Of a DNA stretch of 64,000 bases, positions 1,769 through 49,108 are shown piece after piece. The stretch is from a virus: IMG/VR virus record IMGVR_UViG_3300031918_000005, positions 103,486-167,485 of that record; one strand, given 5' to 3'. How positions within the stretch are numbered: the stretch's first letter is position 1; the number at the start of each line of letters is the position of its first letter. The notes beneath the pieces are model-generated. The model worked only from the letters and a program-made list of their open reading frames with translations. It was not told the DNA's origin and ran no database searches. The translations under genes and the position numbers were made by a program.

Positions 1769-1860
1769 GTATTATAAAAAGTTGGTATTATAAAAAGTTG
1801 GTACATTATTATTTTCCACAATATTAAATAAAATAAAATAAAATAAAATAAAATAAAATA
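1769..1860. repeat. 16-bp tandem duplication plus (TAAAA)n microsatellite
   Basis: gtattataaaaagttg twice at 1769-1800; about 7 TAAAA units immediately before the ATG at 1860. Confidence 0.85.
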
Positions 1861-2837
1861 TGAATTATTACAATTTATTACAATGGTATAATAAAAATAA
1901 AAATTGTTATTTTATTAAAAAAGGTGCTAAAGATTCAGAAGAATATACAAAAATTTTAAGTTTAACTTCTTTCCTTAATGAATATTATGATACAATTTCT
2001 CTATCTCAAAGAATGTGGCATATAGAAAATGATATATTTGAAATTCAAAAATGTGAAATATGTGGAAATATTGTAAAATTCGAAAGACACATAAAATATT
2101 ATAAAACATGTTGTAAAACATGCAATATAAAATACAGAAATTCTGATGAATTAAAACAAAAAACAAAAAACACTAATATTGAAAGATACGGTGTTGAATG
2201 GAGTCAACAATCTGTTATTATTAAACAAAAAATGATTGATAACAACATTAAAAAATATGGAGTTGTATCCACTTCTAAATTACAAAATGTTAAAAACAAA
2301 ATGTTAAAAACAAATTTAGAAAAATATAGTGGAACTGGATTTGCAAGTGATAAAAACAGAGAAAAACAGAGAAAAACAATGATTGAAAGATATGGAGCTG
2401 AAAATCCAAGTTTTATCACATCAATATTACAAAGAGGTCATTTAACCAAAATCAAAAACAATTCTTATCAAAAATCAAAGGAAGAAGATGAATTTTATCA
2501 AGATTTAGTATTATTGTTTGGAGAACATAATGTAATTAGACAATATCAAGATGAAAGATATTATAACAAAATCACAAACAAAAAATTTGTTTGTGATTTT
2601 TATGTGAAAAGTTTAGATTTATTTATAGAATATGATGGTCATTGGTCACATAAACCACAGTATTTAAAAGAGAAAGAAAGAAATGAATTTATTAAAAAAC
2701 TTAATAATAAAAACACAGAATATTCACAAAGTATGTTGAAAGCATATTATAGAGATATTGAAAAAAGAAATATTTCAAAAATCAACAATTTAAACATTGA
2801 ATTTGTACCAAGTAACAAATTATTAAGGCACATTTAA
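1860..2837 (+). CDS. free-standing putative homing endonuclease (Zn-finger, TNxERYG repeats, C-terminal PD-(D/E)xK/Vsr-like domain)
   Basis: CEICG...CCKTC; TNIERYG/NNIKKYG/TNLEKYS/TMIERYG repeats; CDFY...FIEYDGHW; opposite strand to its neighbours. Confidence 0.7.
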   Translation: MNYYNLLQWYNKNKNCYFIKKGAKDSEEYTKILSLTSFLNEYYDTISLSQRMWHIENDIFEIQKCEICGNIVKFERHIKYYKTCCKTCNIKYRNSDELKQKTKNTNIERYGVEWSQQSVIIKQKMIDNNIKKYGVVSTSKLQNVKNKMLKTNLEKYSGTGFASDKNREKQRKTMIERYGAENPSFITSILQRGHLTKIKNNSYQKSKEEDEFYQDLVLLFGEHNVIRQYQDERYYNKITNKKFVCDFYVKSLDLFIEYDGHWSHKPQYLKEKERNEFIKKLNNKNTEYSQSMLKAYYRDIEKRNISKINNLNIEFVPSNKLLRHI

Positions 2838-3391: not shown

Positions 3392-4066
3392 TCAACCTTT
3401 AGTTTTTTTATTTATTTTATAAATTGTTTTGTGTAACCAATATTCAAGTTTTGTTAGTAATGATTTCGATTCCATATTTTTATAATACAATTCAAAAATA
3501 GATATCTTCTCAAATTCCGATATTTGTGTGTTGAGTATGTCAACATCTGTATCATATGTTACACAATTATGAACCAACAATCCATCAGCAATAAACATAT
3601 GAAGCTTATCATCAATTGTTATGTCAAATACTTTATGTTTACCATTCAATAATTCAACTGATTCAATAATATCAAATTTACCTTCGGCATCGGTAAGACA
3701 ATATTCATTCATTACACAATCTTCCAAATGGCTTTTCAATCGTTTTGTTGAAAAGTATGTATTTTTAACAACGACTGTATTTCTTACAATACAGCAAGGA
3801 AATATATGGTCTTCAGTAGCTTGTATTATTTTACCAGTTTTAGTGGTTATTTTACACAATTCTTTTTTACCATTATAATGTACATGAGTTATTTTTGAAA
3901 TTCTTGTTTTATCTATATTAACAAAGTAACCAAAGGGTTCTATTTTATAAGACCTTTGGTTACTATATATTATAACATCTTCAATCAAAGATATCAAATA
4001 TATGATAAGCTTAGGGGAAAAATTTTTACACGATGTTTTTTGTAACTTCGACATAATCTTCATCAT
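3392..4066 (-). CDS. extein-less split-intein protein: long IntC fused directly to a short IntN
   Basis: block B ATEDH, block F VFDITI and block G LVHN, followed at once by CVTYDTDV...ISIFELY (intein block A of the atypically split TerL-intein type). Confidence 0.8.
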   Translation of the reverse strand: MMKIMSKLQKTSCKNFSPKLIIYLISLIEDVIIYSNQRSYKIEPFGYFVNIDKTRISKITHVHYNGKKELCKITTKTGKIIQATEDHIFPCCIVRNTVVVKNTYFSTKRLKSHLEDCVMNEYCLTDAEGKFDIIESVELLNGKHKVFDITIDDKLHMFIADGLLVHNCVTYDTDVDILNTQISEFEKISIFELYYKNMESKSLLTKLEYWLHKTIYKINKKTKG

Positions 4067-4517
4067 TTGTTTTAAAGATGGTTTTAATTTTATCTTTTTT
4101 GACTATGGAAACGATTTCATGATCACAAAGATACCCACCAACCTTTATAAATTCAGTAACTTTTTCAAATGCTTCTTTAGCATCTTCTGCTGATACATAC
4201 ATGTTTGTGTTTGATGTTTTTGTAGATTTATCATCTGATTCAACACTAAATCTAACAATAATTTTGTAATAGCATTCTGAATCATCGCCAACAACATCAG
4301 AAATTTCTTCCTTAAGTATTTTTTTAATTTCAAACACCTTGTTACCTTCTCCATCACCAAGACACCCTATACAAATAAGCTCTTTTTTAATAAGCTCTTT
4401 GAATATCTTTTCAGATTTTTCATAATTCGTTGCAGGAATGTAATATTCTTGAGATTTTGGCACTATACCAAATTCTGTTTGTGTTTGTTCTTTGATAATT
4501 GCTTTGAAGTAAATCAT
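4026..4517 (-). CDS. hypothetical protein with two internal repeats (DUF4494-like)
   Basis: two similar halves (YYIPATNYEKSE / MYVSAEDAKEAF). Confidence 0.5.
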   Translation of the reverse strand: MIYFKAIIKEQTQTEFGIVPKSQEYYIPATNYEKSEKIFKELIKKELICIGCLGDGEGNKVFEIKKILKEEISDVVGDDSECYYKIIVRFSVESDDKSTKTSNTNMYVSAEDAKEAFEKVTEFIKVGGYLCDHEIVSIVKKDKIKTIFKTNDEDYVEVTKNIV

Positions 4518-4522
4518 GATAA

Positions 4523-6106
4523 TTAAGTTTTATTTATATTAATATTAATTGATTCAACTGAAAAACCTTCCTCATTATAATAAGCCCTTCTTTCTTTACC
4601 CCATTTATTCATATATGATATGATAGAGTCCATTTTACCAGTGGTCATATTTTGTTTTTTGGTGTTTGTAGTTTCTATAATGTCATATATTGTTGTCATG
4701 TCTTTACCTTCATAAAGACGAGCCAACCTTCCCATTGTTTGGTTATTGGTAGTATTGGATTTAAAAGCTTCGGCATATAATATATTAGCTAGACTTTTGA
4801 TTGATTGGCCAGTAGAGAATGTTGTATAATTAGCAACAAGTATGGAATTACCAGTATCATCTTTTTTGATTTCATCTTTATATATTTCCCTAAAATTTGT
4901 TTCTACATCACCATCAATATAATATATTTTTTTACCAAGATTATGGTAAATATTAAGCTCTCTAAGTCTTTCTGATATTTGTTTACCATATTCGCCTTTT
5001 TTATCTGTGAAATAAACAAGTGTATTACCTTTTAGTTGACTTATGAGTTGACATTTCCATTCAAAAAGTCTTTTATGTGACCTTATGAATTGTTGTTCAT
5101 ATCTCAATTTCTTTTCGGGGTCATCTATATAGTCCTTATCAATAGCAAGCTGTAATTTCTCTTTGTCAGTTGCGAAGTCAACAGTTATTTGTTTTACTCT
5201 ACAATCTGTTGTCGCACCAACATCAACCAAAGACTTCTTAGATATTACCTGAACAATTGGTCCAAAATTATCTTCATTAGTAAAATGGTCTGAAGTATCA
5301 CCAATTTTTGGATGTGAACCTGATAAACCTATCAGATTATTAACAACACCACAATTTTTAATTATATTTTTTATGGATGAAGAAACCGACCTATGTGATT
5401 CATCACACATTATAGTATCAAATTTTGATAAAAATTTATCATCATAATTAACAAGTGTAGAAAAATTACCAATTATATGATCAAATTTTTCTATATTTTT
5501 TCTATCTTTGGATTCACCATATGCCATACCAAGCTTTAAATTATATTTCCCATTTGAATATTCGGAAAACTCTTGGAATGTCTGTATAACAAGTGCAGGG
5601 TCGGGTTCTATTATAAGAACATGCTTAGATTGATTTGTATATCTAAGTAACATCAATAACAAATACATAATAAGTGTTTTACCACCACCAGTACCAACAT
5701 CAATTCTGCCAAATCTATATTTGAATGCGTTATAAACTGATTCAACCTGATAATCATATGGAGTTATGTCTTCAAGCTCTTCTGTCATATTATAGCAGAA
5801 GCTTTTAACTTGTTCATATGTTATTTTTTCTCTTAGGAAACTATCAAAGTTTTGAAAGCTAATAGGAAATCCAAATCTTTTACACATAGTAATAAGATTA
5901 GACCATTGAGTTGATCTAATCTTATCAGGTGATATCATATAATCAACAATACCTTTCCATCCCTTACCTTTAGCACCCATTTTTTTCTGAAGGATATAAA
6001 AATTTTCAACCTTTTTTCTGAAATAAATAGCAGTTTGAAGTTGTTCTGCTTCAGAATTATAAAATAATATTAAATATTGTTTATCTTCAGTTAATTTTGC
6101 TATCAT
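4523..6106 (-). CDS. uvsW: SF2 DNA helicase, UvsW-like
   Basis: PYDYQ Q-motif, GTGGGKT Walker A, DESH, GLSGS, QTMGRLAR. Confidence 0.85.
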   Translation of the reverse strand: MIAKLTEDKQYLILFYNSEAEQLQTAIYFRKKVENFYILQKKMGAKGKGWKGIVDYMISPDKIRSTQWSNLITMCKRFGFPISFQNFDSFLREKITYEQVKSFCYNMTEELEDITPYDYQVESVYNAFKYRFGRIDVGTGGGKTLIMYLLLMLLRYTNQSKHVLIIEPDPALVIQTFQEFSEYSNGKYNLKLGMAYGESKDRKNIEKFDHIIGNFSTLVNYDDKFLSKFDTIMCDESHRSVSSSIKNIIKNCGVVNNLIGLSGSHPKIGDTSDHFTNEDNFGPIVQVISKKSLVDVGATTDCRVKQITVDFATDKEKLQLAIDKDYIDDPEKKLRYEQQFIRSHKRLFEWKCQLISQLKGNTLVYFTDKKGEYGKQISERLRELNIYHNLGKKIYYIDGDVETNFREIYKDEIKKDDTGNSILVANYTTFSTGQSIKSLANILYAEAFKSNTTNNQTMGRLARLYEGKDMTTIYDIIETTNTKKQNMTTGKMDSIISYMNKWGKERRAYYNEEGFSVESINININKT

Positions 6107-25364: not shown

Positions 25365-25745
25365 ATGAATATTGGTGTGGATTTTGATGGAACATGTGTA
25401 ACACATGAATTTCCAAAAATTGGAGAAAATATTGGTGCTGTCCCAGTACTTAAAAAAATTATTAAATCTGGACATAATATAATACTTAATACTATGCGAA
25501 GCGATATATGTAATTTGCAAGAAGCCATAGATTGGTTCGCTTCTAATGGTATTAAATTGTATGGTATTAATGAAAATCCTAGACAAAAATCTTGGACTAC
25601 AAGCCCTAAAGTATATGCTGATTTATATATAGATGATGCTGCTATTGGGTGTCCACTTCTATTTGATATTAATATATCTACAAGACCTTATGTTGATTGG
25701 GTAAGAATAGAGAAAGCACTTATAGACTGTAAAATCATAAGATGA
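25365..25745 (+). CDS. HAD-superfamily phosphatase (BT0820-like)
   Basis: DFDGT, LNTMR, KVYADLYIDD. Confidence 0.8.
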   Translation: MNIGVDFDGTCVTHEFPKIGENIGAVPVLKKIIKSGHNIILNTMRSDICNLQEAIDWFASNGIKLYGINENPRQKSWTTSPKVYADLYIDDAAIGCPLLFDINISTRPYVDWVRIEKALIDCKIIR

Positions 25746-26818
25746 TGGTTAAATTTCTTAAGATAATATTAAAAATTGTTATATATTTTAATCATAAACT
25801 TTGGAAATATAAAGTTGATGAAGATTGTATAATTAATTCTGTTGTTCCTAAAAACAACACGCTTATAGGTGGTGTTAAAGGAAGCCAACACTTATCTGCT
25901 GTTCATATAAAAACCAATTCAGAAATACTTAAGATAACAACTAAAAACGGTTGTTGTGTTAAATGTTCAATAAACCATTTATTTTATGATTCCAACATGC
26001 AAATTGTTGAGGCTAAAAATATCACAAGACAAACATTCTTGGTAACAAAATATGGTTTATCAAGAGTTGTTATGATTCAAAAATTACCAAGAGAATTTAC
26101 ATTTGATGTTACAATAGGTTCGGGTGAAATGAGTTATTTTTCGAATGATATATTGAGCCATAATTCAATTATATCAGGTATTTTCATAATGTGGTATCTT
26201 CTTACAAATTACGATAAGGGTGTGGCCTGTACTTCTGCAACCGATGATAAAGTAAAAGAACTTATTGAAAAAATAGAAACGGTATATGATAACTTACCGT
26301 TTTATATGAAACTTGGTATATGTACAGATAACCAAAAAAGGAAAGTGTATGATAATGGTTGCTCTATAAAGGGTGAAACTGCAACGGAAAAAGCTGGAGC
26401 TGGATTAACAGTTAATGGTATACTTTATTGTGATGAGTTTGCGTTAATTGACCCAACAGTACTGAAGGTATTCTATACAACAATATTTCCAACAATGTCT
26501 TCTTCACAAACAGCAAAAATGATTATAACATCAACTGCAAGGGGAAGAAATTTATTTTGGCAACTTTATACAGATGGACTGCTTGGTAAAAATTATTTTA
26601 ATCCTATTCGTGTTGATTATTTTGAGGTTGAAGGTCGTGATGAAAATTGGAAACAACAAGAAATTGCAAATCTTGGTGGTTCTATTGAATCATTTGAACA
26701 AGAATATGCAAATTCTTTTGATACAAATCAACAATTGCTTTTACCAGCTGATGTAATGAAAGTTATGAAATCATATCAATCACATTTCAAAAATAATTGT
26801 TTATCACAAGCATCTTGA
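25742..26818 (+). CDS. terL: terminase large subunit, middle fragment: split-intein IntC plus ATPase domain from the Walker A Ser onward
   Basis: CSINH block B, FDVTI, LSHN/S junction (Ser142); then gp17-like LYCDEFA Walker B, IITSTARG, FEQEY; no Walker A lysine and no nuclease domain. Confidence 0.88.
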   Translation: MMVKFLKIILKIVIYFNHKLWKYKVDEDCIINSVVPKNNTLIGGVKGSQHLSAVHIKTNSEILKITTKNGCCVKCSINHLFYDSNMQIVEAKNITRQTFLVTKYGLSRVVMIQKLPREFTFDVTIGSGEMSYFSNDILSHNSIISGIFIMWYLLTNYDKGVACTSATDDKVKELIEKIETVYDNLPFYMKLGICTDNQKRKVYDNGCSIKGETATEKAGAGLTVNGILYCDEFALIDPTVLKVFYTTIFPTMSSSQTAKMIITSTARGRNLFWQLYTDGLLGKNYFNPIRVDYFEVEGRDENWKQQEIANLGGSIESFEQEYANSFDTNQQLLLPADVMKVMKSYQSHFKNNCLSQAS

Positions 26819-27668: not shown

Positions 27669-28195
27669 TGGTAAGTAATAACTTTCATATCAAGTATAAT
27701 AAAATGTTTATGATATTTTTTATACTTGTTATGTTGGGTTCTCTTGTTTCGGCTTATCACATATTTGAAACAATGTCTATTGGCAATCCAATAATTTTTG
27801 CATTAGCAATAGCTGTTGTTTATGAATTTGCTCAAGTACTAATAGTATTGTTAATACCTCAAATAAAAGATAAAACTAAATCATATGTTTTTTCTGTATT
27901 CGCAATTATAATACTCATACAATTATTTTCCAATATATATTATTCATATAATTTTATCCAATCACATATGGATAAAAACGCTGTTATGTTCAATAATTTT
28001 TATGATATACTGAATATCTTTAGTGAAATAACTGATAAGAAACTTGTTACATTCATATTTGCATCAATTATAGGTATGCCTATTCCTATCATAACATTGC
28101 TACTAGCAAAGATTTTTTCTGATAAAAATGACGAAGATGATGATGTACAGAGTACAGATGAATATTATAAAAAATTAATATCAGAATTGGAATGA
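27668..28195 (+). CDS. four-TM membrane protein
   Basis: four hydrophobic segments. Confidence 0.65.
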   Translation: MVSNNFHIKYNKMFMIFFILVMLGSLVSAYHIFETMSIGNPIIFALAIAVVYEFAQVLIVLLIPQIKDKTKSYVFSVFAIIILIQLFSNIYYSYNFIQSHMDKNAVMFNNFYDILNIFSEITDKKLVTFIFASIIGMPIPIITLLLAKIFSDKNDEDDDVQSTDEYYKKLISELE

Positions 28196-29673
28196 TAAAT
28201 GCGAAGCAGATTTTTGATAACATGTCTATCTCGTACTTTAATGAAGATGGTATAATTGAAATAATGAATTTACCAATTTCTGATAATGAAAAATTTATAT
28301 GGGAAGAAACTACAGAAGAAGATAGATATAAGCATAATGTTATTACTTCTCAATTTGATAGACCAGTAAAAAGAATAAGGAAAAATTATTTGTCAAAATA
28401 CAGACAGATAGAATATATCAATAACTTACCACAAGAACTTAAAGACAAAATATTTTCAGATAATAAACCGAAAAAATGGTTTTGGGATATTGAAACTGAA
28501 ATCATAGATGGTGTATTCCCTGATGCATCAAATCCTATAGGAAAAATTTTACTCCATACAATATGTGATGAATTCGGCAATGGAACTATATTTGGTCTAA
28601 AACCGATGACTGGTGAAGAGCTTAAACGTATTGAAATTGACTTAATCAATCACTTATCCAAAGTTAAGGATAAGAAATTGATTAAGAAGGTTAATCTTCA
28701 ATATCGCCAATATGCCGATGAATATTCCATGAATCATGATTTCATTTCAAATTACATGATAAAGTTTCCTATAACTTTTGGTTGGAATGTTTTGAAATTT
28801 GATGCTCAATATTTTTTCAATAGATGCAAAAAACTTGGAATCGATTATGTTAAAATCCTTTCTCCAGTTCATAAATCTTTTTCACATTCTTTATCTGATA
28901 AGTACAATAAAGAAAATAAAATACTACTTGATTTACCGCTTCATAGACCTATAATTGACTACATGCAGATTTTTGAATTTTTCGACCAATCTGTAAAGTA
29001 TAAAACATCAATGTCGCTTGGATTTATATCTGAAGAAGTACTTGGAGTTACCAAAGTTGAATATTCTGGTAATTTACAAACACTATATGAAAAAGATTTT
29101 CCTAAATTCTGTTTCTATGGTATAGTTGATGCATTTCTTGTGCAAATGATTGATGAAAAAACCGATATTTATTCACTTATGCAATCAATTACCAACATTG
29201 GTAAAGTTGAATTATTATTTGGCACATCGGTTTCTATAATTATTGAATCTTTGTTTAGTGACTATTATTATAGAGTGTATAACAAAGTGTTTATCAAAAA
29301 AGAGAATGTTCATGAAGGATATGATGGTGCTTTTGTAATAGACCCTATTGTTGGGCTTTACGAATATATTGGGATTTATGACTTTGAAAGTCTATATCCT
29401 TCAATCATGCAATTCCTCAATATTGGTCTTGATACATTTGTTGGTCAAACCTATGGTGGAGATAAAACAACTGTAATTACTAACACTGGTGAACAAATGC
29501 CATTTGATAAAGCTACTATGATTAGAGCCAATAATGGTGTTGTTTATACAAACAAAATTGAAGGATGCGTGAGAACATCCATTAATGAATTATTCACAAG
29601 GCGTGTAAATGCTAAATATGCCAATAATGATATTGGTAATGAAGTGGAGCAACTCAAAAAACTATTAATATAA
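28192..29673 (+). CDS. family B DNA polymerase, N-terminal half (3'-5' exonuclease plus first palm motif)
   Basis: WDIET, GWN...FD, YGIVD, YDFESLYPSIM; ends in the first finger helix and lacks KxxxNSxYG and YxDTDS. Confidence 0.88.
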   Translation: MINAKQIFDNMSISYFNEDGIIEIMNLPISDNEKFIWEETTEEDRYKHNVITSQFDRPVKRIRKNYLSKYRQIEYINNLPQELKDKIFSDNKPKKWFWDIETEIIDGVFPDASNPIGKILLHTICDEFGNGTIFGLKPMTGEELKRIEIDLINHLSKVKDKKLIKKVNLQYRQYADEYSMNHDFISNYMIKFPITFGWNVLKFDAQYFFNRCKKLGIDYVKILSPVHKSFSHSLSDKYNKENKILLDLPLHRPIIDYMQIFEFFDQSVKYKTSMSLGFISEEVLGVTKVEYSGNLQTLYEKDFPKFCFYGIVDAFLVQMIDEKTDIYSLMQSITNIGKVELLFGTSVSIIIESLFSDYYYRVYNKVFIKKENVHEGYDGAFVIDPIVGLYEYIGIYDFESLYPSIMQFLNIGLDTFVGQTYGGDKTTVITNTGEQMPFDKATMIRANNGVVYTNKIEGCVRTSINELFTRRVNAKYANNDIGNEVEQLKKLLI

Positions 29674-29679
29674 ATTTAT

Positions 29680-29976
29680 ATGGAAGGTAAAAAAGTAATT
29701 GTTAATGTAATCAAAAAGAGAATCCTTGTAAAAATCGAGGAACAAAAAGAGGAAACCGAGAAAGGTCTTATTGCTATAAAACTTGATGATACAGACCAAA
29801 CTCTTGGTGTGATTGTCGGTACTGGTTCTGAAGCTTTGGAAGCTAAAGTTGGTCAAAGAATAATGTTTAACCGATATTCGGGAACATCCTTGACAATAGA
29901 AAATGAGCCATATAGAGTTATGCAAGAAGAAGATATTCTACTCATAATAACAAATAAATACTCTATTAAACCATAA
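29680..29976 (+). CDS. groES: co-chaperonin GroES
   Basis: RILVK...TEKGL...GVIVGTG...KVGQRIMF.RYSGT...EEDIL. Confidence 0.85.
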   Translation: MEGKKVIVNVIKKRILVKIEEQKEETEKGLIAIKLDDTDQTLGVIVGTGSEALEAKVGQRIMFNRYSGTSLTIENEPYRVMQEEDILLIITNKYSIKP

Positions 29977-30037
29977 GAGATCCTCTCTTTAATTCGTGAT
30001 ATTCACAGAATATTAAAACACCATAAAATAGAAGAAA

Positions 30038-31636
30038 ATGAACGAAAAAGTACAGATAAAATCAGGTGCTGATGCAAGAAGTATTATACTTGAAGGAGCA
30101 AAACAGCTATGCGATATTGTGTCATCCACACTTGGACCAGGAGGTAAAAATGTTTTGCTAAAGCATTTGAATGAAAAAATTATACAATCAACAAAAGATG
30201 GTGTAACCGTTGCGAGATTTATCGAACTTGAAAACGAATGGGAAAACATAGGTAGTAATCTTTTGAAGCAATCATCTATGCGTACAGCAATAAATGCTGG
30301 TGATGGAACTACATCAACAGTTATATTTGCTTATTCTTTGATGTGTGAAATAAATGAATTCCTTAAAAATAACCCTGATTACAATGTTCACAAACTTCGT
30401 GATGAATTGAACACATGTAAGGATTTGATGATTGAATATATTAAGGAAAAATCTATCATATCAAAAACAAATCAAGATATTAGAAATATTGCTATGATTT
30501 CAACAAATGGCGATGAAAAAATTTCAAACTTGATTGCATCTGCTTATGAAAAATTTGGTAATGAACATGGTGCTATTGTTGTTGAACCGTCGCCATCAAC
30601 CGAAACATCCATTTCAATTCAAAGTGGTATCAAAGTGGCTTCAGGATATACAAGTTATATGTTTATGACAGATACAAACAAAATGGTTTGTGAATTGAAC
30701 AATTGTGGTGTACTTATAACAGACCAACCTATATCAAAAGGTTCTGATATGTTAAAACTTCTTGGTGTTGTTAACGATAAACATGATTCATTGCTTATCA
30801 TTGCTGAAAATATTGAAGGTGAGGCTGTTCAAACTCTTGTTGCAAACCATTTACAGAAGAAAATGCAAATATGTCTAGTTAAACCAACATTCTATGGTGA
30901 AAGAAGAAAAGATTATTTGTCAATGATTGCTTCTGCAATAAATTCAAAACCTTTTTACGTTGAATCAGGAAATAAATTATCTGATTTCAGCAATGAATAT
31001 GTTGGTACTGCTGAAAAAGTTATAATTACAAAAGATGAAACAACAATCCAAATTTATGAAAATAATAAAGTAAAACTGGATTTCAAAATTGCTGAAATAA
31101 CTTCCAATATTAAATCGATGGTTGATAAAGGAGTTCCCGAAGAAAGCGAAGATATTCAATGGAAACGAAATTTATTATCATTCGCAAAAGGTAATATAGC
31201 TACAATCCGACTTGGTGGCAACTCCGATACTGAAATATATGAAGTTAAAGATAGAATTGATGATGCAATAGCTGCGGTAAAATCATCACTTGAAGAAGGT
31301 GTATCAGTTGGTGCTGGTGTATCATATATTAGAGCAGCAAATTCTTTACCAAGTACATTGACTGCTGACTTAATCAAATCGGCATCTTGTTCTATAAAAA
31401 GAAAATTATTGAGCAATTTATGTGCAAAAGATATTGATATATTGATTAACTTTGATATCATAAGTAAAGGAAATTCAGGCATTAATAGAGATTTTGAAAG
31501 GGTTGATTTAATGGAATCTGGTATTATCGACCCGACAAAAGTTGTCAGAAACTGTGTTGAAAATGCTGTTTCTGTAGCAACAATGTTCTTACTTACTGAT
31601 AATATTGCTATGAAAGTTGAAGATTTGTTAATCTAA
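30038..31636 (+). CDS. groEL: chaperonin GroEL
   Basis: TLGPGGKNV, TKDGVTVA, AGDGTTS, KDRIDDA, GIIDPTKV. Confidence 0.93.
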   Translation: MNEKVQIKSGADARSIILEGAKQLCDIVSSTLGPGGKNVLLKHLNEKIIQSTKDGVTVARFIELENEWENIGSNLLKQSSMRTAINAGDGTTSTVIFAYSLMCEINEFLKNNPDYNVHKLRDELNTCKDLMIEYIKEKSIISKTNQDIRNIAMISTNGDEKISNLIASAYEKFGNEHGAIVVEPSPSTETSISIQSGIKVASGYTSYMFMTDTNKMVCELNNCGVLITDQPISKGSDMLKLLGVVNDKHDSLLIIAENIEGEAVQTLVANHLQKKMQICLVKPTFYGERRKDYLSMIASAINSKPFYVESGNKLSDFSNEYVGTAEKVIITKDETTIQIYENNKVKLDFKIAEITSNIKSMVDKGVPEESEDIQWKRNLLSFAKGNIATIRLGGNSDTEIYEVKDRIDDAIAAVKSSLEEGVSVGAGVSYIRAANSLPSTLTADLIKSASCSIKRKLLSNLCAKDIDILINFDIISKGNSGINRDFERVDLMESGIIDPTKVVRNCVENAVSVATMFLLTDNIAMKVEDLLI

Positions 31637-48268: not shown

Positions 48269-49108
48269 ATGGGTTATTCTGAAACACTTTTGGATTATGA
48301 TATGTATTTATATCTTCATGAATCTATAAACATTTCAAGGTTTCAGGATGAAAGAAGAATGTTTGTACACACAATAGATTTGGCAGAAGGTGCTGGAGGT
48401 GATTATTCAGTTATCAATATATTTGAACTTTTACCAATGACACTTGAGGAAATCGAAAATGTTACATTAATAGAAGATGAATATTCGTTTTTCAAATTGG
48501 TTCAAATAGCAATGTTTAGGTCTAACACAATAATAGTTCCTGATTTAGCAAAATGGTATTATCACTTCTTAGTAGAAGTTTGTATTCCCGACAACACAAA
48601 AATATGTCTCGAAAATAATTACGATGGTAATTATTTTCGAGAAGTGTTGACCAAATTGTATGGTGATGAAAATGAACTTGATGGTGATTTCATGTTCTTT
48701 GTATTTCCATACAATATGAAAGATGACCAGTCTTATGCAGTTAGAATTGGTCTTAGACAATCAGAACACACAAAGAATTTGGGTACTACAATGATGAAAA
48801 CTCAAATGCGACAAAATCAACTTATACTTACCGAATTCATAACAATAGAAGAAGCATTATCTTTTGCAAGGAAGAAAACAAAAGATGGTGGTTTTGGTGG
48901 GTATTGCGCTATGATTGGTAATGATGATTGTATAATGTCTGTAGTTAATATAACGCATATTAGAAAACTTCCTGAATTCCAAGAACTGATTGATGAAGTA
49001 TCCAAATATTGCCCTAAAGAATTTTGGGATGCTATCAGCAAGAAAATGAAAACAATTGCATCTTCAGATTCATCAGGTGATATAACATCAATTTTTGGCG
49101 CAAAGTAA
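48269..49108 (+). CDS. terL: terminase large subunit, stand-alone C-terminal RNase H-like nuclease domain
   Basis: IDLAEGAGGDYSVINIF, FRSNTI, LENN, GNDDCIM match gp17 nuclease motifs. Confidence 0.85.
   Translation: MGYSETLLDYDMYLYLHESINISRFQDERRMFVHTIDLAEGAGGDYSVINIFELLPMTLEEIENVTLIEDEYSFFKLVQIAMFRSNTIIVPDLAKWYYHFLVEVCIPDNTKICLENNYDGNYFREVLTKLYGDENELDGDFMFFVFPYNMKDDQSYAVRIGLRQSEHTKNLGTTMMKTQMRQNQLILTEFITIEEALSFARKKTKDGGFGGYCAMIGNDDCIMSVVNITHIRKLPEFQELIDEVSKYCPKEFWDAISKKMKTIASSDSSGDITSIFGAK

Follow-up and report, generated by a model that had tools for sequence, protein, structure and literature searches.

Phage genes fractured by split inteins and accompanied by a free-standing endonuclease have been described by Dassa et al. 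in 2009 (PMC2677866). These loci are two-part: a conserved enzyme, the terminase being among them, is cut at a conserved motif, and an IntN gene, an endonuclease gene and an IntC gene follow one another on the same strand, the IntC bearing the host protein's C-terminal part. Atypically split inteins in which a short IntN (25–37 aa) complements a long IntC, such as AceL-TerL, GOS-TerL and the consensus Cat intein (PDB 6DSL), also reside in phage terminases, with one intein divided over two genes. The succession IntC-then-IntN in a single chain is found in the engineered SICLOPPS constructs (PDB 5OL1, 5OL7), where cognate halves cyclise the peptide between them, and in engineered ligations of three fragments by a pair of orthogonal split inteins (e.g., PMC7090010, PMC11271493), where the middle piece starts with an IntC, ends with an IntN and carries a cargo. 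Two inteins close together within an NTPase gene are known from haloarchaeal MCM (PMC10643990), where they are unsplit and occupy separate sites with extein between them.

The stretch of DNA analysed here (the window) is the final 64 kb of the 167,485-bp record of an uncultured phage, the relatives of which carry T4-type portal, neck and terminase genes. On its minus strand lies an open reading frame of 224 aa in which a 167-aa IntC (IntC_A) runs, without extein, into a 57-aa IntN (IntN_B) that begins with Cys168. We call this gene the bridge; its features and its neighbours are the following.

3392–4066, minus strand: bridge gene, IntC_A – Cys168 – IntN_B, 224 aa, no extein.
3566–4066, minus strand: IntC_A, residues 1–167, the long C-half of an intein that is atypically split (profile matches, structure model).
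3971–4015, minus strand: N-terminal helix of IntC_A, residues 18–32, with Glu29; candidate docking helix (model and sequence).
3806–3817, minus strand: block B, Thr84-x-x-His87, the His invariant in 13 aligned homologues.
3623–3625, minus strand: block F, Asp148, invariant in the homologue alignment.
3566–3571, minus strand: block G, His166-Asn167, terminus of intein A, invariant in the homologue alignment.
3563–3565, minus strand: Cys168 (codon TGT), which serves intein A as +1 nucleophile and intein B as residue 1; a Cys in 19/19.
3395–3565, minus strand: IntN_B, 57 aa, with block A, hairpin, helix and C-terminal helix (residues 203–223, with Glu208; model and HMM).
4026–4517, minus strand: DUF4494 gene, overlapping the bridge start (context).
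4523–6106, minus strand: superfamily-2 helicase gene (context).

The anatomy of the bridge, first proposed in a reading of the letters alone (the sequence-only reading), is borne out by the positions of the intein blocks, by profile searches and by a structure model. TIGR01443 matches residues 145–168 above its cut-off, and Pfam Intein_splicing matches residues 51–167 (E 1.8e-8) slightly below its own. The last 57 aa by themselves match no library profile model, yet an HMM derived from the IntN halves of other terminase genes only gives them 26.3 bits, as compared with a maximum of 11.8 bits in 2000 shuffles. The AlphaFold model (mean pLDDT 82.9) is confident over about residues 30–220; its residues 34–167 superpose on solved inteins (Z 11–12, rmsd about 2–3 Å), covering these from about their residue 20–40 to the end, so that as modelled this section has the Hint fold and is an IntC devoid of the N-terminal strands. 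An assembly artefact, a misassembly or a frameshift is excluded by the recurrence of the same length and junction in homologues from many independent assemblies. The DUF4494 and helicase genes neighbour the bridge in close relatives, too. Two genes away from the bridge, a DUF7487/DUF559 endonuclease-like gene (1860–2837, plus strand) runs in the opposite direction; it is missing at the corresponding place in a close relative (L002), and several similar genes are scattered across the phage genome.

The terminase itself is encoded in further pieces, one of them outside the window, about 14.2 kb before its start, and given here in coordinates of the complete phage record (G000).

G000:C1:88806-89279, minus strand: TerL-N (109 aa, ending with the Walker A GK) followed by IntN_A (48 aa, Cys1); predicted upstream partner of the bridge.
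25742–26818, plus strand: IntC_B (to 26164) followed by the terminase ATPase, which starts at the Ser+1 (26165–26167) of Walker A.
48269–49108, plus strand: terminase nuclease, a separate gene, no intein (alignment to terminases, BLAST).

The first of these is the gene ending in GK|C plus an IntN that the sequence-only reading had expected elsewhere in the genome. Aligned with four intein-free terminases, TerL-N (109 aa) and the ATPase part (217 aa, from Ser 26165) are gapless at the GK|S junction and, therefore, the bridge contributes no terminase residue. The gene at 48269 extends the same alignment; missed by Pfam Terminase_6C, it was spotted by eye and confirmed by BLAST, and the separate nuclease must associate non-covalently or act alone. 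The nuclease is a separate gene also in G001–G005 and in the phage of P0189 (see below). A genome-wide scan with intein profiles, which the sequence-only reading had suggested, covered all stop-to-stop frames of at least 40 aa and returned exactly two IntN and two IntC (E < 1e-5; next best 0.03–0.12); neither a fifth intein half nor another host protein (e.g., a split PolB) was found in these searches. This phage has a family B polymerase in two distant genes without intein (28192–29673 in the window and G000 89387–90604), the gene for the C-half being immediately upstream of TerL-N. It also encodes a Cpn10 and Cpn60 chaperonin pair (29680–31636 in the window), which adjoins the P0189 gene as well. 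At the end of the record (G000 167332–167485), the last 30 bases of the contig recur at 167333 and the first 30 at 167366, suggesting that the ends overlap as in a circle, apart from a minor artefact at the end.

With two IntN and two IntC only, two matchings are possible: the relay (IntN_A with IntC_A, IntN_B with IntC_B) and the bypass (IntN_A with IntC_B, the bridge being closed on itself). Both inteins of this genome have the residues of class 1: Cys at position 1 of IntN_A and IntN_B, an invariant block B His, block F Asp and terminal His-Asn in the IntC_A and IntC_B alignments, and a +1 nucleophile, Cys168 for intein A and the Ser at 26165 for intein B. Complementary decay of A and B into one unit is not observed, both IntC retaining every catalytic residue. 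The IntC_B profile matches gp41-1, VidaL and CatC.

As in the fractured genes of Dassa et al., a conserved enzyme is cut here at a conserved motif (Walker A, GK|S), and IntC_B is fused to the host's C-terminal part. In contrast with those two-part loci, two split inteins share one site, IntC_A is followed by nothing but IntN_B, and instead of two parts on the same strand with an endonuclease between them, there are three genes dispersed on both strands, 17–22 kb apart. The classical order does exist among relatives, for intein A in L169 and for a single split intein in L170. With AceL-TerL, GOS-TerL and Cat, the system shares the terminase host and the short IntN/long IntC format, the IntN halves measuring 48 and 57 aa together with their added helix; the halves here, unlike those inteins, bear extra helices at the split. 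Ser1 combined with Cys+1 is common to GOS-TerL and to intein A of G003–G007 and P0189. GOS-TerL as another such stack is unsupported, since a Cys+1 occurs naturally at the type of site that it occupies. Contrary to the sequence-only reading, which had placed the AceL-TerL type at Walker A, this type appears to belong to the ATPase–nuclease junction: CatC matches an intein at that junction with E 1e-18 and the Walker A IntC_B profile with only 8e-8, without the helix. We take the native flanks of AceL to be that same junction, a terminase site other than Walker A. The bridge model resembles the SICLOPPS chains, but no peptide separates its halves, and P0189/P0283 assign these to different inteins. 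The middle piece of the engineered three-fragment ligations is likewise arranged, though it is man-made and carries a cargo, while the bridge is natural and has none; and unlike in haloarchaeal MCM, the two inteins share one site and are split. A natural extein-less bridge or back-to-back inteins were not found in searches of the published literature that covered mostly non-subscription papers.

Metagenomic relatives provide a series of states. There are intein-free terminases that read GK|S with nothing missing; G012 has a single contiguous intein at GK|S, the N-part of which is similar to IntN_B; and in LR756500 (L170:4146-7734), the Walker A intein is singly split, its two halves flank an endonuclease-like gene, and its IntC terminus is Ser-Gln instead of His-Asn. 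P0189 consists of TerL-N, a contiguous intein A (Ser at position 1) and IntN_B, while its contig (167,877 bp) also encodes IntC_B:ATPase (P0283) and the nuclease; the superfamily-2 helicase gene is located two genes upstream of this unsplit form, too. Since intein A is complete in cis in P0189, IntN_B is left, among the identified halves, for IntC_B only, and the pairing that the sequence-only reading had proposed with the ATPase fragment at 25742 is thereby supported. In L169, the order is TerL-N:IntN_A, endonuclease-like gene, bridge, i.e., that of a fractured gene; in L174, the bridge lies 0.9 kb upstream of IntC:TerL; in L166, it is flanked by two endonuclease-like genes (identified by reading motifs); and finally, the trio of TerL-N:IntN_A, bridge and IntC_B:ATPase is fully dispersed, as in our phage. 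These intermediates and the junction alignment point to the IntN on TerL-N as the partner of IntC_A. A and B belong to the same helical-linker family (24–34% identity within one genome), and single-intein terminase halves are closer to IntN_B and IntC_B than to the halves of A.

Unsplit inteins stand back to back in the GyrA protein P0159, where the usual GyrA site is occupied by two whole inteins that adjoin each other with no extein between them; the first begins with Ser, and its +1 residue is the Cys of the second. P0219 is similar, and a junction of similar kind is present at residue 670 of the terminase-like P0205. In two loci (L168:9237-9800 and L169:770-1333), directly upstream of a bridge gene, the IntN of TerL-N begins with Gln, by a codon that is identical in the two samples; this IntN_A may thus belong to a split intein outside class 1. 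Thr1 is found in G013 (L133). In L150 and L161 (G014, G015), the terminase is fractured at two other sites, the middle gene being IntC-extein-IntN (Ser1); in L150, this IntC closely matches Cat.

The bridge is real and conserved. Four close homologues (47–50% identity) show conserved synteny wherever the contig is readable, and a profile search yielded seven further stand-alone bridges of 198–232 aa (23–31% identity). The trio is present in eight of eight large genomes (G000–G007, our phage included), which, as five of the seven large records are mutually close, represent about four independent lineages including G000. Those seven IMG/VR records with IntC_B:ATPase (six rated complete, one 83% complete) have no detected intein beyond the trio. 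Conversely, no bridge-like match occurs in 18 mostly partial records with an intein-free or singly split terminase, no phage-collection record has a bridge gene at detectable similarity, and single-protein pattern scans gave no matches; the L135, L002 and L165 records were searched in part. The HN|C junction is conserved in all 19 homologues, in contrast to IntN_A, the first residue of which is variable (Cys in 7, Ser in 6, Gln in 1). Both halves of the bridge are under purifying selection, with dN/dS of 0.13 for IntC_A and 0.07 for IntN_B among G003–G007, of 0.31 and 0.10 between G001 and P0004, and of 0.53 and 0.24 between G000 and G001. The bridge is probably essential. Multiple origins of the bridge are not claimed: the tree splits IntC_A, but a single clade is not rejected by the AU test (p 0.18).

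The explanation we favour, with a probability of roughly 0.75, is that two inteins are stacked at one Walker A site, each of them split, the middle piece being an obligatory, single-use splicing relay. Two related inteins would have settled back to back between the Lys and the Ser of the terminase Walker A, by which the Cys1 of B would double as the +1 residue of A; each would then have been split close to the N-terminus and its pieces scattered, leaving the middle gene with IntC_A and IntN_B. Splicing of A first would involve docking of the IntN_A of TerL-N on IntC_A and transfer of TerL-N from Cys1 to Cys168, whereupon cyclisation of Asn167 would free IntC_A and leave TerL-N:IntN_B; this product would dock on IntC_B and pass TerL-N to the Ser+1 of the ATPase, restoring GK-S. 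Were B to splice first, IntC_A would be treated as an N-extein and joined to the ATPase Ser, and A would then splice the resulting IntC_A:ATPase with Ser as +1. Either order would give the same product, the bridge being consumed with zero residues left in the enzyme; hence, the sequence of A then B, assumed in the sequence-only reading, is not required, although it seems to be the preferred one, given that the +1 residue of A is a Cys in every case and that IntN_A begins with Gln in L168 and L169. By the logic of class 2 inteins, this Gln1 would need direct attack by Cys+1 (standard intein chemistry and class 2 after PMC4031507). Moreover, the Cys168 thioester formed in step A would already be the first intermediate of B, making a direct hand-over possible. 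We infer the relay pairing in this phage, the orthogonality of A and B and all of the chemistry.

Candidate docking helices offer a possible code for such specificity. A helix closes each IntN half and opens each IntC half (modelled in the bridge, read from sequence in the others). Counted over related rows, many of which are near-copies, single-intein systems have Lys/Arg at one position of the IntN helix and Glu/Asp on the IntC helix (9/9), and intein A retains this signature (13/13 parsed; 17/19), the Glu29 position being acidic in 17 of 19 IntC_A; in intein B the signature is inverted or lost, with Glu, Ile or Val at the IntN_B position (18/19) and a basic IntC_B helix that is never acidic (0/19). 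As a candidate contact, this pattern fits the relay rather than the bypass, in a supporting role only. Folding a contiguous helical-linker intein from one sequence gave an uninformative model (pLDDT 49.7).

Were the halves cross-reactive, TerL-N:IntN_A could splice directly with IntC_B:ATPase, and a working relay would be parallel or auxiliary. Chemically this is plausible, given that the IntN of AceL-TerL and GOS-TerL are exchangeable (PMC11766414), that A and B are of one family with the identities given above, and that IntN_A of our phage has a normal Cys1. We nevertheless regard the bypass as unlikely: a dispensable gene would be expected to decay or vanish, whereas the bridge persists in all eight genomes with dN/dS of 0.07–0.5 and invariant catalytic residues; the helix signature would set a basic IntN_A against a basic IntC_B; and the Gln1 of IntN_A in L168 and L169 would, by class 2 logic (PMC4031507), require the Cys+1 that the bridge alone offers.

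The bridge could also be a circular permutant closed on itself, IntN_B folding onto its own IntC_A, and act as a decoy, an inhibitor or a self-cleaving regulator titrating the real pair. AlphaFold, offered no other partner, does show the two halves as one confident unit (about residues 30–220), and residues 56–197 align to the permuted SICLOPPS inteins 5OL1 and 5OL7 (Z about 9). Against it, P0189 keeps IntN_B even though its IntC_A already has its own IntN_A attached covalently to complete it, Glu208 and Glu29 would oppose like charges, and in L169 IntC_A takes the place of the cognate C-half of fractured genes; furthermore, splicing is impossible when a single Cys is both residue 1 and +1 of the same domain. 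We hold this to be very improbable. The least probable alternative is a three-protein complex in which TerL-N passes as a thioester from Cys168 to the ATPase Ser+1, with no stable TerL-N:IntN_B amide, possibly no cyclisation of Asn167, and a reusable bridge. Such a shuttle would exploit the chemical identity of that thioester with the first intermediate of B, and it would agree with the drift of position 1 of intein A (Cys, Ser, Gln) beside a Cys168 that never changes, but inteins are single-turnover and their split halves bind tightly, and Asp148 as well as His166-Asn167 never vary, which would be expected were A to carry Asn cyclisation to its end. The invariant His-Asn thus argues for a bridge that would still be consumed, as in the relay.

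The relay would persist because the halves of A and B would have diverged to a point where TerL-N and the ATPase make a poor pair in the absence of the bridge. We see in this a neutral ratchet left behind by selfish elements rather than a regulatory device. The "AND gate" of the sequence-only reading holds in the logical sense, as three genes would be needed, while nothing supports a regulatory purpose and the neutral ratchet suffices as explanation.

In sum, the gene for the packaging motor of these phages is scattered, and two of its pieces appear to be joined only through a conserved third protein made of intein halves. It is probable that a group of uncultured phages harbours a natural, obligatory, extein-less relay in which a third protein joins the halves of the terminase P-loop by means of two mutually orthogonal split inteins with their specificity in docking helices, some lineages having a first intein without the normal residue-1 nucleophile or a direct thioester hand-over. 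If true, this would be the first described natural protein that consists of intein halves only and has the sole job of tracelessly joining two other proteins. It predicts co-evolved orthogonal split-intein pairs with a short IntN and a specificity helix that can be swapped, which would be of use in protein ligation and in logic circuits. A gene in four pieces would also explain why the terminases of these phages are hard to annotate, and since metagenomes hold all states from the intein-free to the fully dispersed, they would allow one to test directly in what way obligatory complexity arises from selfish elements.
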